This document shows, piece after piece, positions 5,705 through 62,486 of a DNA stretch of 64,000 bases. The position numbers and the translations under genes are program-made. This DNA is from Centroscyllium fabricii. Lineage: Eukaryota. The stretch's first letter is position 1. Every line of letters begins with the position of its first letter. The stretch covers positions 2,728,001-2,792,000 of the forward strand of contig JBNRSN020000006.1 in assembly GCA_051313645.2 (NCBI GenBank), written 5' to 3'. Below the pieces are notes generated by a model that was given only the letters and a program-made list of their open reading frames with translations, did no database searches and was not told the origin of the DNA.

Positions 5705-5873
5705 GATGTGGAGGTGCCGGTGTTGGACTGGGGTGGACAAATGCAAGAAGTCACACAACACCAGGTTAGAGTCCAACAGTTTTATTTTAAATCACAAGCT
5801 TTCGGAGCACTGCTCCTTCCTCAGGTGAAGTGTGCTTGTTTTTTGACACTTCAACACTGGCACCTCCACATCA
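5705..5873. mobile_element. Penelope pLTR-derived fold-back element
   Basis: Starts gatgtggaggtgccggtgttg and ends caacactggcacctccacatc (inverted termini). Carries a hammerhead on the minus strand. Confidence 0.85.
5792..5828 (-). ncRNA. Minimal type I hammerhead ribozyme motif (PLE-associated)
   Basis: Minus strand reads UCAC-CUGAGGA-A-GGAGC-agu-GCUCC-GAAA-GC-UU-GUGA: stem I UCAC/GUGA, CUGANGA core, 5-bp stem II, GAAA, minimal stem III, UH. Confidence 0.75.
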
Positions 5874-5910
5874 TAGATTACAGGAAGTACACGTAAATCA
5901 CAGTTTCAGC

Positions 5911-6040
5911 CATTGCTGTTTGTGGGAGCTTGCTGTGCAGAAATTGGCTGCCGAGTTTCCCAAATTGCGACAATAACTACACTTTAAATGTACTTCATTG
6001 GCTGTAAAGTGCTCCAAGGTCGCTATATAAATTCTTTCTA
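5911..6040 (+). mobile_element. SacSINE1/Deu-type SINE 3' part
   Basis: ttgctgtttgtgggagcttgctgtgc...tacttcattggctgtaaag...gctatataaa tail. Confidence 0.75.
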
Positions 6041-6566
6041 ATGCAACACTAAGCGGCCTTTAGTTTGACGAAGATCCGAGAATTCGAAGTCACATCTCTG
6101 CAGCCAGGAGACAGAAACACATTGTACTACCTGGAAGCTGCTTCTGAAGTGGTGCAGTTAATTACACCTAATGGTTTGATTGACATTTACAGAGTTACTC
6201 TAAGCACTAATTAGCAACTACTGCTCCACATTCCCGTCACAAACAGCAAGTCAGCTAATTCACAAACAATCCTGTAAACACAAGAAAGTCAGAAAGCGCA
6301 TTCCCTCTCTCAGGCTCCACACTACCACACAGACTACAGCCAGAACATGACAGCTTTTTCATGTATTGGGGAAAATGCTGATCTCTCGCCCCGCAAAGGG
6401 AGTAGGAAATATTAATAAATCATGAATACTTCAATGAATTCCTTTGGGATGTTTTTCTGTAGGTGCTGTCCAAATTCAGGTTGCTGGTCCCACGGGCACT
6501 CGCCCTCTGGTACCTCCTGGGACTGAGCGTGCATCACAGCACCAAGCCCCCTCCTGCCTTGACCCC

Positions 6567-6701
6567 CATGATGTGGAGGTGTCGCTGTTGGACTGGGGTG
6601 GACAATTGTAAGAAGTCACACAACACCAGGTTATAGTCCAACAGTTTTATTTGAAATCTCGTGCTTGTGATTTCAAGTAAAACTGTGCGACTTCTTACAA
6701 T
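6567..6701. mobile_element. Penelope pLTR-derived fold-back element with 12-bp TSD
   Basis: Same family as 5705-5873. Flanked by tgccttgacccc at 6555-6566 and 6702-6713. Confidence 0.85.
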
Positions 6702-8700
6702 TGCCTTGACCCCAGCACTGGGCACAGGCGCTGACTATAGACAGGGAAAGGGGACACCGGCAGATTGTCCTCCTCAACCGGGGAATTGAAGGCGGTGGTA
6801 TTCCGGCCCAACTCAACACAGACCGAGGGAGGTCAAACGTGGGCCCCCCCCTGGTCGGTGGGGTTGAACCGTTCGCTTGATAAAGTGGCCGAGCCGTGGA
6901 GACCCCCTTGTTACAATCTAAACTTTACTCCTGCTCAGAATGATGCCTGGTTTATTGGTAGAATCAACGGAATTGACTCCGAGTGGACCCTGCAATCCAT
7001 TCCAAGTGTAGGTTTGAAACGTCGCAGCCGATGTCAGTGCAACCTGCCCGTCGATCTGTGCAGTTCATCTGGCTGCTGTTTTATGTAAAGAAAGATAAGC
7101 AAGAATAGTCTGCAAACAGGGTCAAAAACAGAGGGCAGTGTGCACAGTCCCTGGTTAACTCAGGCTGCTGAGAAAGAGTGCAGTTCACAAAGGGTTCCTT
7201 CCCGATGGCCAGGTGAGCCAGCACTGGCTGGGATCTGACACAATAAACCCACAGCAGAGGCAGCTTTATTTTCAGGGGGTCCTTTTAAAATGGGTAACCG
7301 GCTGCCTCTTGCCGACTGGGGAAGGGGCCAAAGCCGAGGCTGTCCTCAATCTCAGCACCTTGCCGGAGTCAGTGTCAGGGCCACCTTCATGTGAAGCGGC
7401 CACACTCCCAAACAGATTCAGTCACTTCAATGTCACAAGTCCCCCCTCACACTTAACGCTGTTAAAGCCAGCTAATCGAATAAACATGTGTTTAACATTT
7501 GTTCTCATTTCCGAGCCCGGCATGGGGAGGTGGAGAATTTCCCAGCGAGTGTTGTCGGCTGATGTGCCGTCTGGTCATTGTAAGCAGAGTGTGTCCGGCT
7601 CAAACACTGCTCTCAGGATGAAGGATAGTGTCTGCTCGCAGGCTGATTGGACTTGGATGATGATGGATTGGGGAGAAAGTGGAACTACAAGCGCTGTATG
7701 CAAACAAGCTGCGGCTGGCTGTGTATCCGAGTGTCAGAAAGCTCCAACAACTCCAAGGCTATTACTTGTTTACATATTCAATGAAATACTTATCAGCATT
7801 TATTCCAAGATGATACACGTTTCCCATATATTTCCGCCAACAGCTCTAACTTCAGTAGAAATGGAGGCAGCTTTGTGTCAAGAACAGCTAAATCCTGCCT
7901 CTCCATATCAAGCCTCAGCAAGAAAATTACTCTGCAGGCGATAAGGCTTAAAGATAGAATAAAAAGTGACTCGACTCAATTTACACCGCAATATTGGTAT
8001 GACTGAATATTTTTCATTCAGGTAACCGATACAATCACTAAACTGCGCTGCAGATAAATAAAGGGGCTTGTGTCAAGAATAAACGCCATTAATCATGGTC
8101 TTGCCATGCAGTGGTTGTCTGTGCGCCTGATCCACACACAATGGCAAGTGGCACTGCCCCCTCATTGCCCAGCCCTTCTCCCCCCAACATCACTGCACCT
8201 CCTGGTCCTCGGCTTCATTGTCTCATTTTATTATGGACAGCAATGTCAACTGTAACAAAACTTAAAGCTGCACTTTGTAAAAGGCCACACTCCGGCCCCT
8301 AATGACAAAACATTTGCAATTTTGAATTTTTTCAGAAGAAATTTAAATTCAAAAAAGCAGCCAATTTATGAAGAACCCAGACTTAACTACTGAAGAGAGT
8401 CAGAATTCATGAAAAGTGCTTAAGACGGGGCTCGAGTTGTCATTTGTTAGTCTTGCTCTGATTGAACTAAAACACCTCAGCACCCCTGGCCGGCGGGCCA
8501 CCAGTGAAGCTCGAACACACCTGTTCTGAGGACCAGCTGGTTCCAGACACTTGCACCCTCTGAACACCATTCACAGGACTCTCCACACAACAACCAAAGG
8601 GCCCCATCCCTGCCTGCATCAGTCTGGACAGGCCTCTCACACTGCACCATCCGTCTGCCCAGAGAACACGGCCAGCCTGGCAATGGAGTGCCCACCACAG

Positions 8701-9321
8701 GGGGCGGGGGGAGGGGAGAGGGGGAGGGGGGAGAGGAGAGGGGGAGGGGGGAGAGGAGAGGGGGAGGGGGGAGAGGAGAGGGGGGANNNNNNNNNNNNNN
8801 NNNNNNNNNNNNNNNNNNNNNNNNNNNNNNNNNNNNNNNNNNNNNNNNNNNNNNNNNNNNNNNNNNNNNNNNNNNNNNNNNNNNNNNNNNNNNNNNNNNN
8901 NNNNNNNNNNNNNNNNNNNGGAGAGGAGAGGGGGGAGAGGAGAGGGGGGAGAGGAGAGGGGGGAGAGGAGAGGGGGGAGAGGAGAGGGGGGAGAGGAGAG
9001 GGGGGAGAGGAGAGGGGGGGAGAGGAGAGGGGGAGGGGGAGAGGGGGAGGGGGAGAGGAGAGGGGGAGGGGGAGAGGAGAGGGGGAGGGGGAGAGGAGAG
9101 GGGGAGGGGGCAGGGGGCATGGGGAGGGGGCAGGGGGCAGGGGGCATGGGGAGGGGGCANNNNNNNNNNNNNNNNNNNNNNNNNNNNNNNNNNNNNNNNN
9201 NNNNNNNNNNNNNNNNNNNNNNNNNNNNNNNNNNNNNNNNNNNNNNNNNNNNNNNNNNNNNNNNNNNNNNNNNNNNNNNNNNNNNNNNAGTGGGGAGAGG
9301 GAGGGGGCAGGGGGAGGGGGC
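8701..9321. repeat. Polypurine (GGAGAGGG)n / (GGGGGCA)n low-complexity tract with two assembly gaps
   Basis: G/A-only runs; N blocks at 8787-8919 and 9160-9288. Confidence 0.95.
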
Positions 9322-9820
9322 AGTGAAGCACACATTGCTCACAGGAATGTAATGCTGTTTCAGGGGGTCTCTGCACTCTTGTCAGGGAAGCGGGTCCCCA
9401 AAGGGTCCAAACTAAAGGTCATCACTTTTTATGCTCGACTGGCTAAAGGGAGAAAGCATTAGACACAGAAAGAGTTACATTGTCATGTTTTGAGTAAACC
9501 AACAGTATAATTGATGACTATAATGTATGGCTATTGTAAAAGTTGACAACCTGGAGGGGCCGAGGTGTGAAATTCCTGTCATTAATTGTTGGGGTGAGGA
9601 CAGGGGGACAATCCCGCTCTACTCACGGGGACTTTTGCGCTAAGATTACTGACCAGACTTCCACCCCAGGCCTCTCCCAGCCGGCTTCATACTCCTCGGT
9701 GTCACTCAACCACATTTTAAAACATTTTCTCGGGGTTCCGGCAACACCATTGATTGCCCATCCAAGCGGGCATTGCCTCAACCACACAATGTGGGGCTGG
9801 TGTCCAGACAGGCGGTGGGA

Positions 9821-9947
9821 CCGATCCCCCCGAGGCCGATCCCCGAGGCCGATCCCCCCCCCCCCCCCCGAGGCCGATCCCCCGCGAGGCCGATCCCCCG
9901 CGAGGCCGATCCCCCGCGATGCCGATCCCCCGCGAGGCCGATCCCCC
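9821..9947. repeat. GC-rich 15-16 bp minisatellite (CCGATCCCC[C]GCGAGG)
   Basis: About 7 visible units, one with an expanded C run. Confidence 0.9.
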
Positions 9948-10042
9948 TGGGGTGGACACATTGCTCCTTATTTCAGGGGTGCCTGTGGGATCTTGCTGTG
10001 CCCAGATTGGCTGTCGCATTTCCTACATCACAACAGTGAAAA

Positions 10043-10482
10043 AAAGACTTGCATTTATATAGCACCTGTCACGACCACCGGACGTCTCAAAGTGCTTTAC
10101 AGCCAATGAAGTGTTTTTGAAGTGTGTAATGTGGGAAACATGGCAACCAATTTGTGCACAGCAAGCTCCCACAAACAGCAATGACCAGATCATCTGTTTT
10201 TGTGATATTGGTTGAGGGATAAATATTGGCCAGGACACCGGGGAGAACTCCCCCGGCTCTTCTTCAAATAGTGGCCATGGGATCTTTTATGTCCACCTGA
10301 GAGGGCAGACAGCCTCGGTTTAATGCCTCCTCTGAAAGACGGCACCTCCGACAGTGCAGCACACTCTCAGCACTGCACTGAAGTGTCAGCCTAGCTTTCT
10401 GTGCTCAAGTCCCTGGAGAGGGACTTGAACCCACAACCTGCTGACTCTGGGACCAGTGTGCTGCCCACTGAGCTTCGGCTGA
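10043..10482 (-). mobile_element. Near full-length SacSINE1/Deu-type SINE nested in an oppositely oriented copy
   Basis: Reverse complement of the 60703-61173 family. The plus-strand host copy breaks at ...acaacagtga (~10038) and resumes at ~10484 (aaaagtacttcattggctgtg). Confidence 0.85.
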
Positions 10483-11270
10483 CTCTGCAAAAGTACTTCA
10501 TTGGCTGTGAAGCGCTTTGGAGCATCCCGAGTTCTGAAAGGCGCTACAGAAATTTACAAAAATCCAGCAGCTTTCATGGTGGTTTTTTGTTGTTGAATTT
10601 CCCAAGGTGCTCTGGCAGGGTTTAACCTCACAATCTCAGGGTTACTAGTGCAGCACCATAACAACTACCAGACCAGAATGAAAACTTGCAACTTGTAGAA
10701 ATGGAAAAGTTAAAAATGGAAAACAGGTGTAAGAAAATGGTCAATAAAACAGCATCACTGATCACCAAACTGCGCCTGAAAGTACAAGCAATGAATAAGA
10801 CAGCCGATCAACAATGTCTTCTTGTATAACTAAGGAATCTAAAGGTTACATTTTCCATGTCTGCGTTCCGGGCGCTAAGAGCGCCGAGCGGGAAATTGGG
10901 TGCACGGTTTTACCCATTCAATTTAACGGACGGAGGGGAAAGCGTAGTTTTGGCGATAGGTGGCTGCGGACCCGCGAGGGGAGCATGTACCCGACAGGAA
11001 TAAGTAGCGACTTCACCATCGTCCTTTAGTAATGGAGTTGTACTTTGCAGTGATAAGATGCTGATGAATTTACAGCCGCGATGTTAACAACACCTGATCT
11101 CCACCAGAGCTCTGGGGCAGGAAACCCAACTGAGCAAAGCAGTAATCGAGAAATCAATAGACACATCCTCATGTGCCCCCTAGTACTCGGATTAAAGCAA
11201 CACAGACAGAAGCCAGGGAGGCCCAGCTCCTGCCTGTCAACTGAGCTGGGGAATGAGGCCTACTGGACCT

Positions 11271-11272
<2 letters not shown>

Positions 11273-11316
<44 letters not shown>
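11273..11316. repeat. (GA)n microsatellite
   Basis: Direct reading. Confidence 0.97.
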
Positions 11317-11319
<3 letters not shown>

Positions 11320-11824
11320 GGGGAGACAGAGAAAAACAACGCAGATTGCAGCACAAGCTGCCCCCTGTTGTCACTTCAAAAATAACTAATTGATTCAAAT
11401 TTATAGATTCTTATAATGTTAAAAAAGTAGATACATTAAAATAATAAAATGATTCATACAGCCGGAGACGATGCAAGGAGTTCATATTGTCTTTTTTATT
11501 GAACATTACCATTCTTGAGAACATGAATTAAGTGGATTTTAGGACCCAGCGGAAATGCAACATTTAACCCATAGTTCTCCTTGAAGGGAGAAAATTAAAG
11601 CTTCCCGCAGCAAGTTTTAAAGGCAGTCCATCCCGTCATCTGAGACACAGCCATTGAATTCAGCCCATGGGCTCTGATCAGGGGCCAGTGAGAGGCGAAG
11701 CAGCACCGCCTTACCTCACCGGGCCTGCATTTAAAGCTCGTCTGACACATGCTGATCAAACCAATTGTAATCATCTCTCGGAGTTACATTATTCATAGGT
11801 GCAGAAAGAACATCTGATTGTCAA

Positions 11825-14800
11825 GTGCACATTATACAGGTCCCTGATTCTAGAAGGTGCACATTAGACAGGTCCCTGATTCTAGAAGGTGCACATTAGA
11901 CAGGTCCCTGATTCTATAAGGTGCACATTATACAGGTCCCTGATTCTAGAAGGTGCACATTAGACAGGTCCCTGATTCTAGAAGGTGCACATTAGACAGG
12001 TCCCTGATTCTATAAGGTGCACATTATACAGGTCCCTGATTCTAGAAGGTGCACATTTGACAGGTTCCTGATTCTAGAAGGTGCACATTAGACAGGTCCC
12101 TGATTCTATAAGGTGCACATTATACAGGTCCCTGATTCTAGAAGGTTCACATTAGAGAGATCTCTGATTCTAGAAGGTGCACATTAGACAGGTCCCTGAT
12201 TCTAGAAGGTGCACATTAGACAGGTCCCTGATTCTAGAAGGTGCACATTAGACAGATCACTGATTCTAGAAGGTGCACATTAGACAGGTCCCTGATTCTA
12301 GAAGGTGCACATTAGACAGGTCCCTGATTCTAGAAGGTGCACATTAGACAGATCACTGATTCTAGAAGGTGCACATTAGACAGATCACTGATTCTAGAAG
12401 GTGCACATTAGACAGATCACTGATTCCAGAAGGTGCACATTAGAGAGATCCCTGATTCTAGAAGGTGCACATTAGACAGATCACTGATTCTAGAAGGTGC
12501 ACATTAGACAGATCACTGATTCTAGAAGGTGCACATTAGAGAGATTCCTGATTCTAGAAGGCGCACATTAGACAGATCACTGATTCTAGAAGGTGCACAT
12601 TAGACAGATACCTGATTCCAGAAGGTGCACATTAGAGAGATCCCTGATTCTAGAAGGTGCACATTAGACAGGTCCCTGATTCTAGAAGGTGCACATTATA
12701 CAGGTCCCTGATTCTAGAAGGTGCACATTAGACAGGTCCCTGATTCTAGAAGGTGCACATTAGACAGGTCCCTGATTCTAGAAGGTGCACATTAGACAGG
12801 TCCTTGATTCTAGAAGGTGCACATTAGACAGGTCCCTGATTCTAGAAGGCGCACATTAGACAGGTCCCTGATTCTAGAAGGTGCACATTAGACAGGTCCC
12901 TGATTCTAGAAGGCGCACATTAGACAGGTCCCTGATTCTAGAAGGTGCACATTAGAGAGATCCCTGATTCTAGAAGGTGCACATTAGACAGGTCCCTGAT
13001 TCTAGAAGGTGCACATTAGACAGATCACTGATTCTAGAAGGTGCACATTAGACAGGTCCTTGATTCTAGAAGGTGCACATTAGACAGATCCCTGATTCTA
13101 GAAGGTGCACATTAGACAGGTCCTTGATTCTAGAAGGTGCACATTAGACAGGTCCCTGATTCTAGAAGGTGCACATTAGACAGGTCCCTGATTCTAGAAT
13201 GCGCACATTAGACAGATTCCTGATTCTAGAAGGTGCACATTAGACAGATTTCTGATTCTAGAAGGTGCACATCAGACAGGTCCCTGATTCCAGAATGTGC
13301 ACATTAGACAGATTCCTGATTCTAGAAGGTGCACATTAGACAGGTCACTGATTCCAGAATGTGCACATTACACAGGTCCCTGATTCTAGAATGAGCACAT
13401 TAGACAGATTCCTGATTCTAGAAGGTGCACATTAGACAGGTCCCTGATTCTAGAATGAGCACATTAGACAGGTTCCTGATTCTAGAAGGTGCACATTAGA
13501 GATCCCTGATTCTAGAAGGTGCACATTAGACAGGTCGCACATTCTAGAAGGTGCACATTAGAGAGATCCCTGATTCTAGAAAGTGCACATTAGACAGGTC
13601 CTTGATTCTAGAAGGTGCACATTAGACAGGTCCCTGATTCTAGAAGGTGCACATTAGACAGATTCCTGATTCTAGAAGGTGCACATTAGACAGATCCCTG
13701 ATTCTAGAAGGTGCACATTAGACAGGTCCCTGATTCTAGAAGGTGCACATTAGACAGGTCCCTGATTCTAGAAGGTGCACATTAGACAGGTCCCTGATTC
13801 TAGTATGCGCACATTAGAGAGATCCCTGATTCCAGCAGGTGCACATTAGACAGATCCCTGATTCTAGAAAGTGCACATTAGAGAGATTCCTGATTCTAGA
13901 AGGTGCACATTAGACAGGTCCCTGATTCTAGAAGGTGCACATTAGACAGGTTCCTGATTCTAGAAAGTGCACATTAGAGAGATTCCTGATTCTAGAAAGT
14001 GCACATGAGAGATTCCTGATTCTAGAAAGTGCACGAGAGATTCCTGATTCTAGAAGGTGCACATTAGACAGATCCCTGATTCTAGAAGGTGCACATTAGA
14101 CAGATTCCTGATTCTAGAAAGTGCACATTAGAGAGATTCCTGATTCTAGAAGGAGCACATTAGACAGATCCCTGATTCTAGAAGGTGCACATTAGACAGA
14201 TTCCTGATTCTAGAAGGTGCACATTAGACAGATCACTGATTCTAGAAGGTGCACATTAGAGATCCCTCTGATTCTAGAAGGTGCACATTAGACAGGTCCC
14301 TGATGCTAGAAGGTGCACATTAGACAGATTCCTGATTCTAGAAGGTGCACATTACAGATCCCTGATTCTAGAAGGTGCACATTAGACAGGTCCTTGATTC
14401 TAGAAGGTGCACATTAGACAGATTCCTGATTCTAGAAGGTGCACATTAGACAGATTCCTGATTCTAGAGGGTGCACATTAGACAGATCCCTGATTCTAGA
14501 GGGTGCACATTAGACAGATTCCTGATTCTAGAAGGTGCACATTAGACAGGTCCCTGATTCTAGAAGGTGCACATTAGACAGATCCCTGATTCTAGAAGGT
14601 GCACATTAGACAGATCCCTGATTCTAGAATGTGCACATTAGACAGATCCCTGATTCTAGAATGTGCACATTAGACAGGTCCCTGATTCTAGAAGGTTCAC
14701 ATTACAGATTCCTGATTCTAGAAGGTACACATTAGACAGATCCCTGATTCTAGAAGGTGCACATTAGACAGATTCCTGATTCTAGGTGGTGCACATTAGA

Positions 14801-17800
14801 CAGATTCCTGATTCTAGAAGGTGCACATTAGACAGGTCCCTGATTCTAGAAGGTGCACATTAGACATGTCCCTGATTCTAGAAGGTGCACATTAGAGAGA
14901 TTTCTGATTCTAGAAGGTGCACATTAGACAGGTCCCTGATTCTAGAAGGTGAACAATAGTCAGGTCCCTGATTCTAGAAGGTGCACATTAGACAGGTCCC
15001 TGATTCTGGAAGGTGCACATTAGACCGGTCCCTGATTCTAGAAGGTGCATCTTAGACAGGTCCTTGATTCTAGAAGGTGCACATTCGACAGATCCCTGAT
15101 TCTAGAAGGTGCACATTAGACAGGTCCCTGATTCTAGAAGGTGCACATTAGACAGATCCCTGATTCTAGAAGGTGCACATTAGACAGGTTGCTAATTCTA
15201 GAAGGTGCACAATAGACAGGTCCCTGATTCTAGAAGGTGCACATTAGACAGATCCCTGATTCTAGAAGGTGCACATTAGACAGGTCCCTGATTCTAGAAG
15301 GTGCACATTAGACAGGTCCCTGATTCTAGAAGGTGCACATTGGACAGGTCCCTGATTCTAGAAGGTGCACATTAGACAGATCCCTGGTTCTAGAAGGTGC
15401 ACATTAGACAGGTCCCTGATTCTAGAAGGTGCACATCAGACAGGTCCCTGATTCTAGAAGATGAACATTAGACAGATCACTGATTCTAGAAGGTTCACAT
15501 TAGACAGATTCCTGATTCTAGAAGGTGCACATTAGAGAGATCACTGATTCCAGAAGGTGCACATTAGACAGATTCCTGATTCTAGAAGGTGCACATTAGA
15601 CAGGTCCCTGATTCTGGAAGGTGCACATTAGACAGGCCCCTGATTCTGGAAGGTGCACATTAGACCGGTCCCTGATTCTAGAAGGTGCATCTTAGACAGG
15701 TCCTTGATTCTAGAAGGTGCACATTAGACAGATCCCTGATTCTAGAAGGTGCACATTAGACAGATCCCTGATTCTAGAAGGTGCACATTAGACAGATCCC
15801 TGATTCTAGTAGGTGCACATTAGACAGGTCCCTGATTCTAGAAGGTGCACATTAGACAGATCCCTGATTCTAGAAGGTGCACATTAGACAGATCCCTGAT
15901 TCTAGAAGGTGCACATTAGACAGGTCCCTGATTCTAGAAGGTGCACATTAGACAGGTCCCTGATTCTAGAAGGTGCACATTAGACAGATCCCTGATTCTA
16001 GAAGGTGCATATTAGACAGGTCCTTGATTCTAGAAGGTGCACATTAGACAGGTCCCTGATTCTAGAAGGTGCATATTAGACAGGTCCTTGATTCCAGAAG
16101 GTGCACATTAGACAGGTCCCTGATTCTAGAAGGTGCACATTAGACAGATCCCTGATTCTAGAAGGTGCACATTAGACAGGTCCCTGATTCTAGAAGGTGC
16201 ACATTAGACAGGTCCCTGATTCTAGAATGTGCACATTAGACAGATCCCTGATTCTAGAAGGTGCACATTACAGATCCCTGATTCTAGAGGGTGCACATTA
16301 GACAGATTCCTGATTCGAGAAGGTGCACATTAGACAGATCACTGATTCTAGAAGGTGCACATTAGACAGATCCCTGATTCTAGAGCGTGCACATTAGACA
16401 GATTCCTGATTCTAGAAGGTGCACATTAGACAGGTCCCTGATTCTAGAAGGTTCACATTAGACAGGTCCCTGATTCTAGAAGGTGCACATTGGAGAGATC
16501 CCTGATTCTAGAAGGTGCACATTAGACAGGTCCCTGATTCTAGAAGGTGCACGTTAGACAGGTCCCTGATTCTAGAAGGTGCACATTAGACAGATCCCTG
16601 ATTCTAGAAGGTGCTCATTAGACAGGTCCCTGATTCTAGAAGGTGAACATTAGACAGATCACTGATTCTAGAAGGTGCACATTAGACATATTCCTGATTC
16701 TAGAAGGTGCACATTAAACATATTCCTGATTCTAGAAGGTGCACATTAAACAGGTCCATGATTCTAGAAGGTTCACATTAGACAGATTCCTGATTCTAGA
16801 AGGTGCACATTAGAGAGATCCCTGATTCTAGAAGGTGCACATTAGACCCTGATTCTAGAAAGTGCACATTAGACCGGTCCCTGATTCTAGAAGGTGCATC
16901 TTAGACAGGTCCCTGATTCTAGAAGGTTCACATTAGACAGATTCCTGATTCTAGAAGGTGCACATTAGACAGGTCCCTGATTCTGGAAGGTGCACATTAG
17001 ACCGGTCCCTGATTCTAGAAGGTGCATCTTAGACAGGTCCCTGATTCTAGAAGGTGCACATTAGACAGATCCCTGATTCTAGAAGGTGCACATTAGACAG
17101 ATCCCTGATTCTAGAAGGTGCACATTAGACAGATCCCTGATTCTAGAAGGTGCATATTAGACAGGTCCTTGATTCTAGAAGGTGCACATTAGACAGGTCC
17201 CTGATTCTAGAAGGTGCACATTAGACAGATCCCTGATTCTAGAAGGTGCACATTAGACAGGTCCCTGATTCTAGAAGGTGCACATTAGACAGGTCCCTGA
17301 TTCTAGAAGGTGCACATTAGACAGATCCCTGATTCTAGAGGGTGCACATTAGACAGATTCCTGATTCGAGAATGTGCACATTAGACAGATCACTGATTCT
17401 AGAAGGTGCACATTAGACAGATCCCTGATTCTAGAGGGTGCACATTAGACAGATTCCTGATTCTAGAAGGTTCACAATGGACAGATTCCTGATTCTAGAA
17501 GGTGCACATTAGAGAGATCCCTGATTCTAGAAGGTGCACATTAGACAGGTCCCTGATTCTAGAAGGTGCACATTAGACAGGTCCCTGATTCTAGATGGTG
17601 CACATTAGACAGGTCCCTGATTCTAGAAGGTTCACATTAGACAGGTCCCTGATTCTAGAAGGTGCACATTAGACAGGTCCCTGATTCTAGAAGGTGCACA
17701 TTAGACAGATCCCTGATTCTAGATGGTGCACATTAGACAGGTCCCTGATTCTAGAAGGTGCACATTAGACAGATTCCTGATTCTAGAAGGTGCACATTAG

Positions 17801-19993: not shown

Positions 19994-20190
19994 TGGTGGC
20001 GCTGCTGTCAGACCCACCACCACCTAGGGGCCACACAGCCAGGGACCGACAAGTCTTCAAATGTCAACCTCAATGTATAAAATAGATTACAACACACTCC
20101 CCGGCTCCAGGTAGCAATACAAAGGTTTTTCACAGTTTGCTCGGACTTCACCAACTCAAAAGATGCGGACGCCCAGATCTCTTAAGTGCG

Positions 20191-22050: not shown

Positions 22051-22504
22051 CGCTTGGGCCGCCGGAATACCTTCCCTCTGCCACACTGGATATGGACAAC
22101 TCCACCAAAGGAGCCTCTTCATTAGTAAAACATCAATATACAAAAAACACAGCAGGTCTGCAGGGTTTGGGGCGTTTCCTGGATGTTCTCCTGGGACAGG
22201 CGGGAGATTTGCTTCGGCTGTTTATTGCCGACAGGTTTCTGCTCCTGCTGAGCTCCGAGGACATTGCCAGATATTTCCAGACCCATCCAGATCAGATTCT
22301 CCTCCCCCAACACAACACAGCTTCAACAATCGAGTCTCGGTACAGGGAACTCCCCGAAACCTTGACTCGCTCTCTCTCTCTCTCCACCGATGCTGCCTCA
22401 ACTGCTGAGTTTTTGCAGCATTTTCTGCTGTTTTTAATAATTGAGTCAGGTTTGCTCCCGAAAATCGATCTGCCCGGCAAACACAAGCCTGTTGATTTCA
22501 GGCC

Positions 22505-22610
22505 ATGATGTGGAGGTGCTGGTGTTGGACTGGGGTGGACAAATGTAAGAAGTCACAACACCAGATTATAGTCCAACAGTTTTATCAAATAAAACTCGAA
22601 GCTGGTGTTG
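22505..22610. mobile_element. Penelope pLTR-derived fold-back element with 12-bp TSD
   Basis: atgatgtggaggtgctggtgttggactggggtggac terminus; tgatttcaggcc at 22493-22504 and 22611-22622. Confidence 0.85.
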
Positions 22611-22653
22611 TGATTTCAGGCCGGGGACCGCGGCTGTAAACCGCCGCTCGGCT

Positions 22654-33310: not shown

Positions 33311-34299
33311 AATAGGACTGTCCAAAATCAATCGCCAAAAGTGGCTAAAATGCAATGCATGCAGGAAGGGCTGAATGCCCCCTCCTGTTCCAGAAGATAT
33401 CTATGCTTCTCGGTTTCCTAGACTAGATTAGAGTAGGTATCTCCAGATAAAAAGCTGGCACCAGTACAGGCACGATGGGCCAAATGGCCTCCGACCGTGC
33501 TGTAATTTTTAGGACTCTCTCACAACCTTTATTAAAGGATTAAATGCTAAAGCATTCAGCAAGTAAGTCAGCATCTGTGGAAAGAACCGATGAGTTAACA
33601 CTTCAGTTAAGGTACAGTTCCAATGAAGGGAATATACCCCAAATGATAATGTGCCTGTTCACTTCTGAGACACTGGCTGATCTGTGTGTTTTGTTGCAGT
33701 GGTTTCCTTTTGTGAACAGTTCTTTGAGATGCCCTGCCATGCCTTGCACCAGTCGTTGAACAACTGGACTGGCGGGTGACTTGTTGCCAAGCCTCTTGCT
33801 GTAACCGTTCACTAGGAGATCTATGTTTTGGTGGAGACAGACCTGCTAGCAAAATCACATCAAGGGATTTGTTTTGATCAGGAGAATGTCTGACGCACAT
33901 GGAAACCAATCACCATGTTTGAGAGTCTTCAATTCAATCTACGGATAGATCAATACCAATCTACAGGGCATGTGTCTGACCTACATGGAGTGCAGACTCT
34001 CTTCCCACAGTAACACAGCACACGTGCCCAAGACCAAGAGTTGTTTGTCGAACCAAAGCTTCGGGACTTCCAGGTGTAAAGAGCAGCACTGCTGAAGTTT
34101 AACCAGTTCAAATCATACATCTTACCAGAACAGATCACTCATTAGCACCCTGTTGCGTGTAGGGTAACCTGGAGCCAAGTGGGAAGAATCTCAAGCCCCC
34201 GGGACAAGTCCAGGCCAGCTGATGATCAATGGTGCCTTGGCGCATCGTGTGAGCATGTCTGGTTCAGGTAGGAGATTGCTAAATCTGCCAACAATGCTC

Positions 34300-34562
34300 A
34301 TATAAAGTCAGGGAACACTGCCAGATGATTACAGGTAATCTTTCCAACTGCCCTTTATCACACCTCGGCAGAGAGATAATCACAGGTGTGATAAAAGGCA
34401 GTTCGAAAGATTACCTGTAATCATCTAGCATTGTTCTCTGACTATATATGCTGTGCCTATGTGCATCTCTTCACTTCACCTGACGAAGGAGCAGCGCTCC
34501 GAAAGCTTGTGATTTCAAATAAACCTGTTGGACTATAACCTGGTGTTGTGTGACTTCTTACA
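34300..34562 (+). mobile_element. Penelope pLTR fragment with inverted 5' segment
   Basis: ~66-bp inverted arms (34300-34365 / 34384-34449), then a hammerhead and ctgttggactataacctggtgttgtgtgacttctt shared with the other copies. Confidence 0.85.
34476..34512 (+). ncRNA. Minimal type I hammerhead ribozyme motif (PLE-associated)
   Basis: UCAC-CUGACGA-A-GGAGC-agc-GCUCC-GAAA-GC-UU-GUGA. Confidence 0.8.
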
Positions 34563-46918: not shown

Positions 46919-47036
46919 GGACCCACATCCAGTAACCAGTTCAAAATGGCACTGAATTTGGAACCTCACCCACAGAGACCATAAGGAAACTAGGTACAGG
47001 TTAAGCAACATCAATGAAGCAAAAAGTTTACTCTGC

Positions 47037-52702: not shown

Positions 52703-53754
52703 TACAGAAAGTGGAATAGAGAGGGTGGAAAGATTGGATTGAGAGAAATAAAAGAGACAGAAATAAAAAAAATTAATGTCCAACAATAATTAAAATCTGA
52801 AGGAATGAGACGCCACACTTGTAAAAGTAAATTTTCAATGCCAGCAAGATTGTTTGGCAGTAACCAAGACTTCACACACCATTCACCTACACTTGAATTG
52901 ACAACACTTGAATTGACAAGCCGGAACTTTTTCTGGCATGTTTAGTGGCAAGTAGGGAACTTCACTCCCTTCCATGGATGTGGATGCCGAGTCTATTGGA
53001 GAAATACTGTTGGAGCGAAGTCTGTGTAGGAGCAGGGCAACTCGGACAGCAACTCGCTGATTTCCGCGTTTAACTACGCATGTGCGGACGCTGGAAGCTG
53101 CGGTCCGATTTACTCTTTAATAATGGTGAGTGCTGATAGCCTCACCGTTATTTTTACTGAAAATCTGGGTCAATGTTTAAAAATAAACTGAGATGCTGAA
53201 ACGAAGAAGTGAACCTTAACACTTTGTAAAAATTTGGTTTCAAGTGGGTGCTGACAATGACAGTTGCTTTTCAAACAACATTACCCTGATCCAGAAAAGC
53301 AATTCATCTCACAAATTCTACCATAAGTTTTACTGAACAAAGGTTATCCAGAATACTGGTGGATCATACTCACATGTGCAGCGGGGCAAGAGGTGATGGG
53401 TCGTAATGGTAGCGCCCCTCATGATGTCTGGCATCGATCGGAACAGGCGGGTGGAAGGATGGAAAAAGGGGGTGTGGAGCTTTAAAATGAGAGAAAACAA
53501 GAAGCAAGAAGGTTAGAGGCAAATCTCAAAGTACACTTCATCAGCACACTGAATCTCAGGGCTGTATTAACTGATAGACCACTATTAACAACACCACTAT
53601 TAACAACACCACTATTAACAAGCCAACATTTCATTTGGCACATGTATTTTTGAAGAAGGTCAACACTGGCTTGTATTAAATCCATTGTTTAATACCACTT
53701 CCTATCTTCTATGTTTCTACGCCTGAGGCAACTTTATTTCAGTTCAATTCCGTG

Positions 53755-54198
53755 GTGTCAGCTGTGGCTCAGTGGGCAGCACTCTCGCCTCTGGGTCAGA
53801 CGGTTGTTGGGTCAAGTCTCACTCCAGAGACTTGAGCACAATATCTAGGCTGACACTCCAATGCAGTACCGAGGGAGTGCTGCACTGTTGAAGGTGCCGT
53901 TTTTTTGGATGAGGCATTAAACGGAGGACCTGTCTGCCCTCTCAGGTATTATTTCAAAGTAGAGCAGGGACTTTCCCTGGTGCACTCTCCAATGTCTATC
54001 CCTCAATCAGCATCACTAAAACAGAGTATCTGCTCATTATCTCATTGCTGTTTGTGGGAGCTTGATGTGCGCCAATTAGCTACTGCATTTGCTACATTAC
54101 AACAGTGACTACACTTCCAAAGTACTTCAATGGCTGTAAAGTGCTTTGGGGCGTCCGGAGACCATGAACGGCGCTATCTAAATGAAAGTTCCTTCTTT
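53755..54198 (+). mobile_element. SacSINE1/Deu-type SINE
   Basis: tgtcagctgtggctcagtgggcagcactc head through gcgctat..aaatg tail. Confidence 0.88.
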
Positions 54199-54954
54199 GA
54201 CAGATGGATCAGAGACTGAGAAATGGCCACTGTTCCTCAGTGTCTGTCCTGTGGTCAGGTACATGTTGGAAGGCAATTCCTGCATCAGACTCAGCCAGTT
54301 TTATGGTATCAGGCTATGAAGGTTGGGACAGGTTGCCTACATTTGCATCTTTCTAACACAGAGAGCTGGTGAAAAGTGGTCGCTTTCTGCTTTTCATATT
54401 TACTCAAAAAGGCAAATTTATAAAAATATCCAAAGAGTTGCTCTTCACTTTTAGAAGTTTTGGTGCAATCCCTAGACGTCATTAGCGAGTGCTCTCGAAA
54501 TTCCTGAAAGACACACAATTCAACTGAACTGTATGATTGACAAAATATTGACTTACCAGTAAATGATCAAACCTTCTGATTTACAAGGTTTAATTTAAGC
54601 TTCTGTCATCTTTTGACAAGATCAACAACATTTTTGACTAATTTGTAACACGTTGGCAGGCTGAAGGGTTTTCTTACCTGTCTCCTGTGGATTAGAGCAA
54701 TGCGCTCAGTTATAATGTATCAAAAGAACTGCTTATGATCCAGTTCCACAAAACAACTTTGCACAGAACCAATCATACAGGGAGAGAGAACGTGGACAGT
54801 TACTTAGAAAATAAAGAACAGCTGCTGGAGTTACACCAGTCAATGAAATGCAACACGTACAGCCGGCAACAACCAGAACAGATCGATAACCAGCAAACCC
54901 AAACATGGAGCCAACGAATGAAGAAACAACAAGGTGCTCGTTCCAGATGGGTCT

Positions 54955-56307
54955 GCAACTGGCAGGAGGCAGGGCACATCTGGCAGGAGGCAGGGCACAT
55001 CTGGCAGGAGGCAGGGCACATCTGGCAGGAGGCAGGGCACATCTGGCAAGTGGCAGGGCACAACTGGCAGGAGGCAGGGCACAACTGGCAGGAGGCAGGG
55101 CACATCTGGCAGGAGGCAGGAGGCAGGGCACATCTGGCAGGAGGCAGGGCACATCTGGCAGGAGGCAGGGCACATCTGGCAGGAGGCAGGGCACATCTGG
55201 CAGGAGGCAGGGCACATCTGGCAGGAGGCAGGGCACATCTGGCAGGAGGCAGGGCACATCTGGCAGGAGGCAGGGCACAACTGGCAGGAGGCAGGGCACA
55301 TCTGGCAAGTGGCACGGCACAACTGGCAGGAGGCAGGGCACAACCGGCAAGAGGCAGGGCACATCCGGCATGATGCAGGGCACATCCGGCATGATGCAGG
55401 GCACATCCGGCATGATGCAGGGCACATCCGGCAGGAGGCTGTGCACATCCGGCAGGAGGCTGTGCACATCCGGCATGATGCAGGGCACAATTGGCAAGAG
55501 GCAGGGCACATCCGGCAGGATGCAGGGCACATCCGGCAGGATGCAGGGCACATCCGGCAGGAGGCTGTGCACATCCGGCAGGAGGCTGTGCACATCCGGC
55601 AGGAGGCTGTGCACATCCGGCAGGAGGCAGGGCACATCCGGCAGGAGGCAGGGCACATCCGGCAGGAGGCAGGGCACATCCGGCAGGAGGCAGGGCACAT
55701 CCGGCAGGAGGCAGGGCACATCCGGCAGGAGGCAGGGCACATCCGGCAGGAGGCAGGGCACATCCGGCATGATGCAGGGCACATCCGGCAGGAGGCTGTG
55801 CACATCCGGCAGGAGGCTGTGCACATCCGGCATGATGCAGGGCACAATTGGCAAGAGGCAGGGCACATCCGGCAGGATGCAGGGCACATCCGGCAGGAGG
55901 CTGTGCACATCTGGCAGGAGGCAGGGCACATCCGGCAGGAGGCAGGGCACATCCGGCAGGAGGCAGGGCACATCCGGCAGGAGGCAGGGCACATCCGGCA
56001 GGACACATCCGGCAGGAGGCAGGGCACATCCGGCAGGAGGCAGGGCACAACCGGCAGGAGGCAGGGCACAACTGGCAGGAGGCAGGGCACAACTGGCAGG
56101 AGGCAGGGCACAACTGGCAGGAGGCAGGGCACAACTGGCAGGAGGCAGGGCACAACTGGCAGGAGGCAGGGCACAACTGGCAGGAGGCAGGCCACAACTG
56201 GCAGGAGGCAGGCCACAACTGGCAGGAGGCAGGCCACAACTGGCAGGAGGCAGGCCACAACTGGCAGGAGGCAGGCCACAACTGGCAGGAGGTAGGCCAC
56301 AACTGGT
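54955..56307. repeat. 21-bp G-rich minisatellite (CTGGCAGGAGGCAGGGCACAT), ~64 units
   Basis: Direct reading; this array generates the 400-500 aa repeat ORFs. Confidence 0.98.
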
Positions 56308-57599
56308 AACAGGCTAACGGCCCCATGTTCACGTCATACAACCACACGGTTCTCTCACCCTCTTACGTCCCTCGCCCCGGTTGCAGTTTTTGTAGCAGCA
56401 ACTTATTTCACCTCAAGGTTTCCTGCAGTGATCGGATGGTCTTTGCAAGATCCACCGGTTTAAGGGACCTGGGACCAAGTGGTCTCCAAATTTGTCGGCT
56501 GCAGTCACAAATTCAGCCTCAGAAGATGAGAAGCGGAAGCTCTCGGTTCGCTGTATACTCAAAGGTTTACAATACGGCCAACAAGAAATTCTCAAAACAC
56601 ACACAACCTTTAACATCGCCAGTCGGGATGTTAAAAATGTGTTGAATGAATGCTTTGCAAAAAAATATATAAAACTACCCAAAGGCAAGCTGAACACATA
56701 CACAAGCACTTTAACTGTCACAAATGGAACAAAACCAATGAATTTCATTACCATCAGAACTCAACTATGAATAAATGAACTCAGCTCCCCGACCAATCGT
56801 TCATTTCTGCTCCGTTTTCCACACAGCAGCTTTGAGCCACAAAACAGAGACAGTCCATCATTGCTACCTAGTCTGCTTGGGACAAACCCGTGTGACTGGA
56901 AGTGGCCTGCATGACTAGATCCAGCATAATTATCCATCTCGTGACTTATTATTCACATATGAACAATACATCTGGAGAACATCATAACTCAAGAGTCTGT
57001 GTAATAAGTTACTGCACTGTTACCATCTTCTGTTGCAGCCCTTGACAAAATGCCACATGATGACTTTTACAAAGTCAGGCTAAAACTGCTGAAGCAGAAC
57101 AAAATGCCACTAAACCTCCGTACCTGCTATTTATCATACAATTTCCTGACTGATGGTTCCACAAACCAGCTGCTAAGTGCTGTGTACTCTACTGTCAGGA
57201 AACTAACATGCTAAATGGAAGACAGCGAGAGTAATAGGGAGAAGCAGTAGAATCAATTTTACTCTGGGAATTAGTTCTCTCAGGATTTTAATACTAACCG
57301 GACTCCAAAGCACATCAAACCAGATGGATCTTTTGCCATTGAATGTGGTATATATATGTATCGAAAGGGCATTTTGTCATATCTCTGCAATTATAAAATT
57401 GCCCAGTTGAATGAAATAAGATTAACTTTAAGCCATGGGTATCCAAGCTAAATTTTTCCTTCGTGGGTCTCTCATCTATATATGATGGAGCCTCGAGGGC
57501 CACATCCACATTGCCTACATTACAACAGTGACTACACTTCAAAAGTACTTCATTGGTTGTAAAGCGCTTTGAGACATCCGGAGGTTGTGAAAGGCGCTG

Positions 57600-58470
57600 T
57601 ACAATGCAGTGTGTGTCATCTACAAGAAGCACTGCAGCAACTCGCCAAGGCTTCTTCGGCAGCACCTCCCAAACCCACCACCTCTTCCACCTAGAAGGAC
57701 AAGGGCAGCAGGCGCACGGGAACACCGCCACCTCCAAGCTCCTCTCCAAGTCACACACCATCCTGACTTGGAAATATATCGCCGATCCTTCATAGTCGCT
57801 GGGTCAAAATCCTGGAACTCCCTCCCTAACAGCACTGTGGGAGCACCTTCACCATACGGGGAGGCGGTGGCGTAGTGGTTCTGTCACTAGACTAGTAAGC
57901 CAGAGGCTCAGTCAAATGCTCTGCGGAGATGGGTTCAAATCCCACCACGGCAGCTGGTGGAATTTAAATTCAATTCAATTTAATTCTGGAATTAAATGTT
58001 AGTCTTAGTAATGGCGACCATGATACCATTGTCAATTGTTGCAAAAACCCATCTGGTTCACTAATGTCCTTTAGGGAAGGAAATCTGCCGTCCTTACCTG
58101 GTCTGGCCTACATGTGACTCCAGACCCACAGCAATGTGGTGGACTCTTAATGCCCTCTGAAATGGCCTAGCAAGACACTCAGTTGTAAAAACAACCGCTA
58201 CGCAACATTGTGGGTCTACCTACACCATATGGACTGCAGCGGTTCAAGAAGGCAGCTCACCACCATCTTCTCGAGGGCAATTAGGGATGGGCACTAAATG
58301 CAGGCCTAGCCAACCAGCGACGCCCACATCCCATCAACGAATAAAAAAAAATATGGACTGCAGCGGCTCAAGAAGGCGGCTCACCACCACCTTCTCGAGG
58401 GCAATTAGGGATGGGCAATAAATGCTGATCTTGCCAGCGATGCCCACATCCCATAAAAATGAATAAAAAA
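57600..58470 (+). mobile_element. CR1-clade LINE 3' end containing a tRNA-derived SINE (57860-58350) with the same 3' tail
   Basis: GSKSWNSLPNS C-terminal motif. The tail ggactgcagcgg(t/c)tcaagaaggc...gcccacatcccat occurs twice; atacgg/atatgg flank the inner SINE. Confidence 0.8.
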
Positions 58471-58503
58471 GCAAGTCTTTCTTTCTTTAGATCTCAAGTT
58501 AAG

Positions 58504-58952
58504 TGTTAGCCTTGGCTCAGTGGTAGCATTCTTGCCTCTGAATCAGAAGGGCCCATTCCAGAGACCTGAGCACATAATCCTGGCTAACACTCCAGTGCAG
58601 TGCTGAGAGAGTGCTGCACTGTTGGAGGTGCCGTCTTTCAGATAAGACCATAAACTGAGGCCCCATCTGCCCTCTTAGGTGGATGTAAATGATCCCACGG
58701 GACTATTCGAAGAAGCGCAGGAGAGTTCTCCTGATGTCCTGAGCAACATTTATCTCTCAATCAACATCACTAAAACCGAGCCTCTGGTTATTATCTCATT
58801 GCTGTTTGTGGGAGCTTGCTGTGTACAAATTGGCTGTCTCTTTTCTTACATTACAACAGTGACTACACTTCACAAATACTTTATTGGCTGTAAAGCACTT
58901 TGGGACATCCTGAGGTCATGAAAGGTGCTGGATAAATGCAAGTTCTTTCTTT
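58504..58952 (+). mobile_element. SacSINE1/Deu-type SINE
   Basis: Head, core and tail match the family. Confidence 0.88.
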
Positions 58953-59937
58953 TTTGATGATAACAGGTCTTGGTGTTCTGATTCATTACTTATCCACCAA
59001 TGAGGCAACAGCGCTGAAAAAAACAGCAATTTACAAACCTCAAGACCCACAAAATTCAAACCAGAGGGGGAGAAGTATAAGTGTAAATCAGATCGAGATG
59101 CCTGGGTTTTGAGGACGGATTGCCAAGGCACAGGGGACCATGTGGCCCCCAGGGTACAGTTTCAATATCACTGCTCCTGATTGTCAAGCAGTCACTGGCC
59201 GAACTGATGGAAAATTGGCCCAAAATAAACATCCTCCTCGCAGTCCTCAGCAGAAGCAATTCTAAAATACCACTCACTGCCAGACTGTGAAATGGACTGG
59301 GATTTGATATTTTTTATTTAAAAAACACACACATTTAAAGATAAAAGGATGTTTAAGCAGTCCAGCCACTCTGCCAACTTAAAGGAGCTGAAATATCACA
59401 GCGGCTGGAAACCTGAAACAGGAACAGAAAATGACAGAAAAACACAGGTCAGGCAGCATTTGCGGAAAGAACACGCAAATTAATGTTTTGGGTGCGGAAC
59501 CTTCTTCAAAATGCAGAGATTTATTTTTGAAGAAGGTGGTCCCACAGGCAAAACATTTAACTGGTCTGTCCTCTCCGCAGTTTCTGCCTGACCTGCGGTT
59601 TCTGGAGTTCCAGCCGCACCATCTCCAGCTCAGTCACCTTCTGTTTAAAGCAGGCACTGCCAGGCACAGGAAGGTGGCCCAGGATGACTATGCAAACTGT
59701 CAGTGCCAGACAATTTCAGGATGCAGTTTAAACAAAAAAAGTGTGTTTCAAAAATCAATTAAGATAAATTTCGCAAGAATTATTAACAGAGGTCGAGGCA
59801 AGTACACACTTTGTTGGAATTGTACAGCATTTTAAAAGAATATGTTTGATGAACTAGACTTGTGTGTGGGGTCAATAGAAAAGTGTGCGGAATTTTATCA
59901 GAAATTTGGAGGGCAGTGCACCAAACTCATGAATAAT

Positions 59938-60697
59938 GGGCCAGAAATCGCGATGAGCGCGGGAGGTTTTTGAGCCGGGTGTTAGCGCGCCCGAGCTCCG
60001 AATCGCAGGGAGTTCCATTTCCAGCTGCTACCTGCAATTCCAATGGCGTCCAGCGGGGGATCGTGAGTTGCTGCGAGCTGGATCGCGTTCGCCTGCGCAC
60101 CACGAGGTGCGCAGTGCACTTCCGATTTATTTCGGAGTTTTTTTATCGGGGCAAGTATTGAAGATTTTCCACTTAAAAATATCAGACGTAAGCACCCGTT
60201 TTTAGCAGGTAAGTCTTTATTTTATAGAATTTAAGTGTTGTTTTTACAGGTTTTTAATTTGTTTAAACTTTAAGGACAGGTAAGTATTCTTTTAGGCCAG
60301 TTAAAGACTTAACATTTTTTTTCAAAATTTTTATTTTTTCTTTAAAATAGGTCATTTATGTTAGAGTATTGTTAAAAAAATGTGGTGTTTTTTAAATTTT
60401 ATTGTGTGTTCAGGTGTGTTTTTGAAGCTCTTCCTTTTCAAAACTTACACAGATTTCTCCGTATAAGTTATGAATGGAGGATTGCTTCCATTGATTGACT
60501 CCCTGCCGATCACGTGGTCTCGTGCGATATCTCGCGCTAATTACGCCATTGAGTTGCACCAGCAGGTCGCTTGGAGCTTTCAGCAGCTGTACAACTCGGG
60601 AGTTCACATCGTAGAATTGCAAAACGGCAGAAGTGCAGGGTAAGTGTAACTTGGAGCCTTGCACTCGCACGATGGCTCCAAGGCTAATTTTTAGGCC
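59938..60697. mobile_element. Probable non-autonomous DNA transposon (Harbinger-like MITE)
   Basis: Imperfect short TIRs gggccagaaat / atttttaggcc; AAT on both flanks; CpG-rich ends around an AT-rich core. Confidence 0.55.
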
Positions 60698-60702
60698 AAT
60701 AA

Positions 60703-61173
60703 GTGTCGGCCGTGGTTCAGTGGGCAGCACACTCACCTCTGAGTCAGAAGGTTGTGGGTTGAAGTCCCGCTTCAGGGACGACAGCACATATAGCTAGGCT
60801 GACACTCCAGTGCAGTGCTGAGGGAGTACTGCACTGTCGGAGGTGCTGTCTTTCAGATGAAACATTAAACCGAGGCCCGGTCTGCTCTCTCAGGTGGATG
60901 TAAAAGATCCCATGGCCACTATTTTGAAGAAGAGCAGGGGAGTTCTCCCCGGTGCCCTGGCCAATATTTATCACTCAACCAACATAACAAAAAAAACCAG
61001 ATTATCTGGTCATTATCACATTGCTGTTTGTGGGAGCTTGCTGTGCGCAAATTGGCTGCCACGTTTCCCACATTAAAACAGTGACTACACTTCAAAAGTA
61101 CTTCATTGGCTGTAAGGCGCTTTGAGACATCCGGTGGTTGTGAAAGGCGCTATGTAAATGCAAGTCTTTCTTT
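60703..61173 (+). mobile_element. SacSINE1/Deu-type SINE, full length
   Basis: A box (tggttcagtggg), B-box-like gggttgaagtccc, central domain, and tail gaaaggcgctatgtaaatgcaagtctttc. Confidence 0.9.
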
Positions 61174-61339
61174 AACCACAGACAAACATTATTTATTCAG
61201 GAAAGCAGGATGCTGGCTCTGATTGATGGCTTTTAAAAATTGGTACAGCTAACAAAGTGGATTGCTCTCTACTGACTCACCCTTGGCCCAGCAGCATTAT
61301 TATGTCAAGCTTTCTAACTGGTGAATCAACTTGGTCGTT

Positions 61340-61742
61340 CGCTCCCCTCTGAGTCAGGATTTGAGCACATAAATGAAGCGGACTCTTCGTGCAGCAGTCA
61401 GTGAATGATGCTTTGTCAAAGGTGCGGTCTTTTGAATGAGGGTTAAATCGAGGCCCCATCTGCATGTTCAGGTGGATGTTAAAGACCCAATGGTACTACT
61501 GAAGAGGAATAGGGAGTTCTGCATGTATCCTGGCAAACAGTCTTCCTTCAACCAAAACCACAAAAACAACAGATTAACTAATCATTCATCTCAATTGCGG
61601 CTTGTGGGATCTCGCTGTGTAGAATTGGCTTCTGCAGTTACCCACATAACAGAAGCACCTGGAAAATAATTCATTGGTTGTGACGAGCTTTTGGGCTTCC
61701 TAAGGAAATGATAAGGTGCTCGATGGTTGCAAGTTCTTTCTT
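61340..61742 (+). mobile_element. Older diverged Deu-type SINE
   Basis: Collinear but degenerate match to the adjacent copy. Confidence 0.65.
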
Positions 61743-61964
61743 TATTGGGCCAAATGATCCTAAAAAAATCCTTTAATCTTCATCAACAATTCTAGCCATA
61801 GGGCCATAAGCATTTCCACTATAAAAGTCACAATACCAGAGACATTTAATGCACCTCTCCTCTCCCACCTCCACCTCCCCATCCCCGGCTCAATTTCTTG
61901 CATTGTGGAAATCTTGTCAGTGTGTTTATTTTAGCAAATCATCTGCAATTCCAGAAAATAAGCA

Positions 61965-62150
61965 AATGCAAGAAGTCAGATAACACCAGGTTATAGTCCA
62001 ACAGTTTTATTTGAAATCACAAGCTTTCAGAGCGTTGCTCCTTCCTCAGGTGAAAGAGAAGTTTCAAATAAAACTCTTGGACTATAACCTGGTGTTGTGT
62101 AACTTCTTGCATTTGTCCACCCCAGTCCAACACCGGTACCTCCACATCAT
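61965..62150. mobile_element. Penelope pLTR-derived fold-back element with 12-bp TSD
   Basis: Inverted arms; agaaaataagca at 61953-61964 and 62151-62162. Confidence 0.88.
62017..62053 (-). ncRNA. Minimal type I hammerhead ribozyme motif (PLE-associated)
   Basis: Minus strand: UCAC-CUGAGGA-A-GGAGC-aac-GCUCU-GAAA-GC-UU-GUGA (G-U pair in stem II). Confidence 0.72.
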
Positions 62151-62486
62151 AGAAAATAAGCAGGGTAAGAAATAAATCCTCATATGAACCGAGAAAGCAC
62201 CATCACACCCGCCTCCCACTGGACCCTCCATCTTCTCTCAATGGGGAACGGCAGGTCTCACTTGTCATTTAATGAAGCAGTTATTTTACATGAAATGTTC
62301 AGGATGTAGCTAAATCCATTCAAATATCCTTGAGACATAAAGAGCGCACTTTTGAAGGCAGTAGGATTATCGGATTTACTCAACACCATGGTGAACATTT
62401 TTACATCCTGTCACTCAGCTAATATTGTCCAAAGTCTGACCACCATGCAGGGGTCGGACAACAGGAAAGGCAACCATTTCAGTTCA

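Follow-up and report, generated by a model that had tools for sequence, protein, structure and literature searches.

We have analyzed five short, hairpin-like elements in a 64,000-nucleotide (nt) stretch of the Centroscyllium fabricii genome (assembly GCA_051313645.2, contig JBNRSN020000006.1, positions 2,728,001 to 2,792,000; hereafter the window) and find that they do not form a mobile family of their own: they are short insertions of an autonomous Penelope-like element (PLE) that abounds in this genome. We consider it likely that these and related copies are short head-to-head insertions of this PLE, each of which is built anew through a staggered cut and priming from both 3′ ends. The original prediction had offered two readings of the five copies, namely a non-autonomous, retrozyme-like RNA mobilized in trans, or stereotyped abortive insertions made by an endonuclease with a fixed 12-nt stagger. 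The first is largely refuted and the second holds; the window elements belong to a known class and are themselves ordinary dead insertions, with a layout that has already been published.

The Penelope origin proposed for the five copies is borne out by the sequence they have in common with an intact autonomous element. A search for a full-length PLE recovered an intact tandem copy (L073) with a single 890-amino-acid open reading frame (ORF) that starts from an ATG and encodes a reverse transcriptase with a YIDD motif (Pfam RVT_1, E 2e-8). By eye, the C-terminal region of this ORF contains a VYLI...YIGET-type motif together with Cys and His residues, a region where Pfam gives no match; we read this end as a candidate GIY-YIG-like pattern. 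The linker reads CHSNLCKTC (CX4CxxC), and since a CX2-5CxxC linker between reverse transcriptase and endonuclease is described as marking Neptune or Nematis (PMC8557442), the parent element would by this motif fit one of these two types. A protein search of the 7.2-Gb genome returned many long open frames, and exact matches to a 29-nt tail motif and a 28-nt body motif numbered 35,440 and 111,008, respectively. The pseudo-long terminal repeats (pLTRs) arise through tandem or partial-tandem copies; in L073 and L076 the same-strand hammerheads lie 3198 and 3323 bp apart. We number the element from the A of the ORF ATG (+1). The terminus that the original prediction had recognized in four of the copies is the PLE tail, which ends on this ATG; the hammerhead core begins at about -121, with its predicted cut at -93/-92. 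L076, a near full-length copy, contains an unrelated insertion of ~270 bp early in the ORF (3880-4150).

Our main sample comprised 145 tail-bearing copies retrieved through three exact-motif searches. Dropped were locus L186, which is identical to L185 in both insertion and flanks (contig C47) and is a segmental duplicate, as well as seven copies open at the locus edge and one unclassified copy. Head-to-head pairs in which an arm with a tail is joined to an arm that ends at -25 to -48 made up 69 of the 145, and in these we find the inverted, 5′-truncated copy with a 30-40 bp tail at one end that characterizes PLEs with an endonuclease (EN+). The tail-less arm of a pair usually ends at about -33 to -42 and the tail at +2 or a few bases further. 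Of the rest, 50 appear to have one arm only, in 15 the inverted arm has a different end, and a further 10 are complex, open or unclassified; a single copy in the 145 has two tails, and it lacks a target duplication. The same arrangement was seen in 30 loci chosen independently of the tail, where by eye 12 pairs have both canonical ends and one tail each, and in 40 pairs selected by their junctions (34 with one tail, one with two, two with none and three other). Pairs range from 133 to 1437 bp, with 40 of 68 falling between 100 and 300 bp. The layout is unchanged in a 3.1-kb copy, which is flanked by a 12-bp duplication, and copies of 1.4-3.1 kb that carry ORF sequence agree with the short pairs in layout and duplication length. 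One pair departs from the two usual start sites: at locus L049 (around 1529, minus strand), its arms both continue for ~130 nt beyond the tail and enter the ORF start. At locus L012 (1100-1700) three short copies occur in a row, and two of these are arranged tail to tail on either side of a common 11-12 bp repeat, which suggests repeated insertion at one spot.

The target duplications argue for a fixed stagger. Duplications flank 62 of the 68 pairs that remain after removal of the duplicate locus, as against 5 of 400 shuffled flank pairings, and their lengths are narrowly rather than broadly distributed (12 bp in 22, 13 bp in 20, 14 bp in 5, longer in 4 and shorter in 11). When lengths were simulated with chance extension and mutation, a fixed stagger of 12 or a mixture of 12 and 13 fitted the data (log-likelihoods of -130 and -129), while a uniform range of 7-17 (-162) and other broad ranges, a fixed 11 and a fixed 13 were rejected. 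Duplications were present in 32 of the 40 junction-selected pairs, again with a peak at 12. Targets are 71% A+T compared with 56% in the flanks, and we detected no fixed target sequence beyond this A+T richness and overlaps at the termini, in agreement with the original prediction. In a raw tally made without a null expectation, target ends commonly overlap element ends by 1-4 nt. The tail commonly runs 1-9 nt into the ORF, and does so by at least 1 nt in about 44-45 of 84 copies.

A scenario that would account for this layout is one in which the PLE protein cuts the two DNA strands 12-13 nt apart and reverse transcription starts from both of the 3′ ends, at the ORF start codon on one and ~37 nt upstream on the other. 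The two complementary DNAs (cDNAs) would usually be copied from the same source transcript, would in many cases terminate close to the hammerhead's 5′ edge, at -112 to -140, and would be joined by host end-joining. In L1 twin priming, both nicks likewise prime cDNA and an inverted 5′ part comes to lie inside the target duplication; there the arms copy different parts of one RNA, whereas here a single stretch is copied into both arms, from start sites ~37 nt apart. Beyond the one-tail layout and the narrow duplication lengths, our reasoning for favoring twin priming comes from the 47 of the 68 pairs that are simple and no longer than 380 bp, whose junctions we mapped (L068 and L110 are badly mapped), and from the alleles of the arms: (i) the tail-less arm reaches more than 15 nt past the tail arm in 11 of the 47 and the tail arm is the longer in 6, so the tail-less arm cannot be a simple fold-back copy of the tail arm, nor can it be the template for the tail; (ii) sites that define subfamilies agree between arms in 381 of 441 comparisons, where 226 are expected; (iii) in the 40 junction-selected pairs, arms are closer to each other than when permuted within the subfamily (186 vs 238) and (iv) the arms end within 10 nt of each other in 25 of the 47 pairs, compared with 11.4 when shuffled. 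Rare variants include 13 that are common to both arms and 130 that are private to one.

Several considerations weigh against twin priming. Most of the sample is from one contig and was picked by exact motifs, which favors young copies. Symmetric junctions and shared rare variants are equally expected from hairpin self-priming, from later symmetric deletion and from conversion of a long palindrome. One-armed, truncated copies less commonly have a duplication (18 of 50), and theirs are of reduced length (8-14 bp with a mode of 9), which is at odds with one rule for all copies, although some of their boundaries are limited by the reference set. The element described in PMC11167929 belongs to the Poseidon clade and primes without homology, while the junctions here often overlap by 1-4 nt (again counted without a null expectation). 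Finally, the twin-priming model does not account for the stop near -125: in short pairs, 50 of 94 arm ends lie at -112 to -140. A transcription start is one candidate cause; a TATA-like box ~30 nt upstream of this stop is found in some subfamilies but is absent from the subfamily with 900 such folds.

The turning points of the hairpins also bear on what the hammerhead contributes. The predicted cut is the end point of 4 of the 94 arms, and we reject hammerhead cleavage as what sets the ends of most copies; the hammerhead would instead appear to be a passenger of the pLTR. In a rough genome-wide count, for which the search patterns differed, symmetric folds numbered 2688 at the 5′ edge of the ribozyme, 951 around the cut and 225 at a control site. 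The six-base palindrome of stem III is, by eye, the center in 30 of the first 50 listed folds near the cut, and we estimate that this junction recurs in several hundred of the 951. Because the 20 palindrome-centered copies that we fetched differ in subfamily allele and in tail-less end, the junction recurs by microhomology. Among the 47 mapped pairs no two junctions are identical, and that of copy 5 in the window has two matches in the genome when one mismatch is allowed, that is, one besides itself; the hairpins were thus made at insertion and not copied as units.

A minority of pairs has different hammerhead cores in the two arms. For one core type we counted 107 mixed-core pairs vs 900 matched ones, and allele figures for the mixed pairs come from 30 fetched loci, of which 28 were analyzed (one likely duplication and one broken arm were dropped). 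Downstream of the predicted cut, rare variants are common to both arms in 5 of the 28 (0.57 expected) and 29 of 1377 sites differ between arms (55 expected). In 21 of 26 cases the foreign core is linked to the downstream allele of its partner, whereas elsewhere this core has that allele in 8 of 43 (P 6e-7), and the switch maps mostly to -104 to -85, a 20-nt block that includes the predicted cut. In 66 pairs not chosen by allele, 13 differ upstream only and 3 downstream only (P 0.02). It is possible, though we would not bet on it, that in an addition to twin priming the RNA is cut by its hammerhead and the reverse transcriptase, on reaching the cut, switches to a second element RNA, thereby acquiring a foreign ribozyme core. 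The frequency of mixed pairs, the common source of their arms downstream of the cut, the position of the switch and the excess of upstream-only differences are all consistent with this. However, the -104 to -85 block is the sole long perfect homology near the arm end, so that a homology-guided jump or later ectopic repair at the hairpin tip would map there too, and we regard either of these as just as likely as a switch at the cut. In addition, the position of the cut is predicted and few arms end at it, and in PMC11167929 no RNA reads are reported to end at the cut site of the element under study. A broader and more doubtful proposition is that the stubs are an in vivo fossil record of a dimeric enzyme, a fixed 12-13 nt cut, twin priming and cut-linked core swaps in at least a tenth of short events. 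If true, the stubs would be evidence from the genome for in vivo cleavage by PLE hammerheads and for the hammerhead as a point of recombination.

We think it unlikely that the same element and staggered cut are combined with a mirror arm that arises by self-priming, in which a cDNA or antisense template folds back on itself, or by symmetric loss of the center of long palindromes. Self-priming on an antisense template has been proposed (PMC3846280), and both the correlation between arm ends and the perfect or near-perfect centers, including those on the stem III palindrome, are what it would produce. On the other hand, the longer arm is not always the same one, most junctions show a short overlap or an insertion, and there are arms with differing cores; self-priming alone also leaves both the one-tail rule and the two-sided duplication unexplained.

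Twin priming is further favored over the retrozyme-like alternative, in which a non-autonomous hairpin RNA is excised by its hammerhead and reinserted in trans as a unit, a reading we consider highly improbable. The hammerhead motif is indeed well kept (each stem II pair is formed in 193-204 of the 207 motifs in the fetched loci), more than half of the pairs (40 of 68) fall within 100-300 bp and the stem III junction recurs. Nevertheless, we saw neither tandem monomers nor, in the window, head-to-tail units; same-strand neighbors in the loci are irregularly spaced, we saw no units copied as such with ends at the cut site, and the same layout extends to ORF-bearing copies. Together with the unshared junctions, the diversity of the palindrome-centered copies and the rarity of arm ends at the cut, stem II variation is limited to G-C/G-U wobble, with no two-sided change among the 207 motifs, and single minimal hammerheads failed to cleave in the experiments described in PMC4209133. 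A miniature inverted-repeat transposable element or other fold-back DNA transposon was rejected, as only one of the two ends bears the tail, lengths vary between 133 and 1437 bp and the junctions are unique.

There is precedent for much of this architecture. Insertions of the EN+ PLEs Pen2a_Av and Pen2_Av, as described in PMC3846280 (with a scheme in PMC8557442), have a head-to-head inverted 5′-truncated copy, a 30-40 bp tail at one end that extends into the ORF start, a short target duplication and a tandem full-length form. Their duplications are given as 8, 9 and 10 bp on single copies (PMC3846280) vs the measured peak of 12-13 bp here, where copies number in the tens of thousands and, in many of them, each arm is just ~90-130 nt. 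The Poseidon element PAc of the green anole (PMC11167929) is alike in that its protein, a predicted dimer, cuts and extends both DNA strands in vitro and prefers AT-rich DNA, in that two adjacent start sites bound the tail, and in that the hammerhead is reported as dispensable for insertion. It differs in belonging to another clade by the linker motif and in having an ORF that starts inside the hammerhead, whereas in our element the hammerhead lies ~120 nt upstream of the ATG on which the tail ends; the text consulted states no duplication length for PAc. In PMC4209133, opposite-strand dual motifs 100-700 bp apart are read as truncated PLEs; the word 'shark' is absent from its text, and core-exchanged arms do not appear in the part of it examined. 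The non-LTR retrozymes of bioRxiv 10.64898/2026.07.22.740005 are likewise derived from PLEs, hammerhead-bearing and non-coding, and are reported from a chondrichthyan; they are described as head-to-tail tandem hammerhead units, unlike the single, head-to-head copies with unique junctions seen here. We found no published report of a 12-13 bp PLE duplication, of PLE twin priming or of core exchange, although older papers, Repbase or the supplements of PMC11167929 may hold them. According to the portions consulted of PMC11167929, PMC8557442 and PMC4209133, the origin of inverted PLE ends and the role of the hammerhead are open questions, and our data provide figures against which a reconstituted system could be tested: the stagger of 12-13 nt, the single start site on each strand, the match in length between arms and the switch point at the ribozyme.

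With regard to the window itself, all five copies were found where they had been predicted, with corrected extents for copies 1 and 4 (Table 1), and a BLAST search with three of the five as queries revealed no sixth.

Table 1. Copies of the PLE and their parts in the window (element positions relative to the ORF ATG)
Feature	Position	Strand	Description
Copy 1, composite	5165-5874		710 bp; 5′-truncated PLE copy, arm and tail piece
Copy 1, 5′-truncated PLE copy	5165..5704	+	Last 84 ORF codons (endonuclease end), then 3′ untranslated region/pLTR
Copy 1, tail arm	5703..5832	-	Element about +2 to -127; hammerhead core 5800-5824 (-)
Copy 1, right end	5845..5874	+	9-bp repeat of 5695-5703, then last 23 nt of tail
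Copy 2	6567..6701		Tail arm on - strand, +3 to about -97; second arm tail-less, internally deleted
Copy 2, target duplication	6555..6566 and 6702-6713		12 bp
Copy 3	22493..22622		Tail arm 22505-22585 (-), reaching -81; flanked by 12-bp duplications (22493 and 22611)
Copy 4	34299..34562		Inverted arm spanning -150 to -236; + arm without tail, -216 to -38; hammerhead core 34480-34504 (+)
Copy 5	61953..62162		12-bp duplication, two arms, 12-bp duplication (61953/62151); textbook layout
Copy 5, tail-less arm		-	-34 to -129; hammerhead core 62025-62049 (-)
Copy 5, tail arm		+	-87 to +2

The three exact 12-bp flanking repeats that had been noted stand, around copies 2, 3 and 5, and none can be extended. 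The claim that each copy is an imperfect hairpin fared less uniformly. Copies 2 and 5 are indeed head to head, the arms of copy 2 meeting at a decayed version of the stem III palindrome, and the second arm of copy 3 is ~25 nt and is missed by BLAST. The hairpin of copy 4 (34299-34450) lies upstream of its own hammerhead, and neither a tail nor a target duplication was found for this copy. The insertions are stereotyped in their fixed outer ends but not in their turning points, which vary with preferred zones.

Copy 1 is not the element of ~170 bp that had been described; that segment forms the end of a composite that is nested or rearranged. Its hairpin consists merely of its two tail pieces, the tail terminus being present on each side (with a single base change on the left), and its direct repeat is only 9 bp (5695/5845). 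The PLE piece at 5165..5704 ends just short of the hammerhead and is 94% identical to the natural full-length copy L073. Copy 1 has the appearance of an insertion that landed in the pLTR of an older copy of this PLE, from which ~105 nt are also missing (5695-5703/5845-5853). The composite lies within another interspersed repeat (5000-5164, 5905-6013) and is flanked by a 24-nt imperfect direct repeat (5141-5164, 5905-5928).

Hammerhead cores were called from their motif and their agreement with the minimal PLE type in the literature, and are present in copies 1, 4 and 5 with the predicted stem II loops agu, agc and aac. As anticipated, they are of the minimal type I: motifs in the fetched loci have the features described in PMC4209133, namely an extra base between positions 9 and 10.1, G-C as the first stem II pair, a palindromic stem III and a short stem I. 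Stem II pairing is as proposed with the qualification that the conserved first pair is G-U rather than G-C in copy 5, the core of which folds no better than shuffled sequences (z -0.04). A scan of the window with Rfam models, which had been suggested as a check, detected no hammerhead and returned only chance matches to microRNA hairpins. One such match is to a near-perfect 78-bp hairpin (4843-4920) inside a longer inverted repeat at about 4740-4990. From about 11700 the window also contains an array of ~225 copies of a 32-bp unit that are 90-97% alike.

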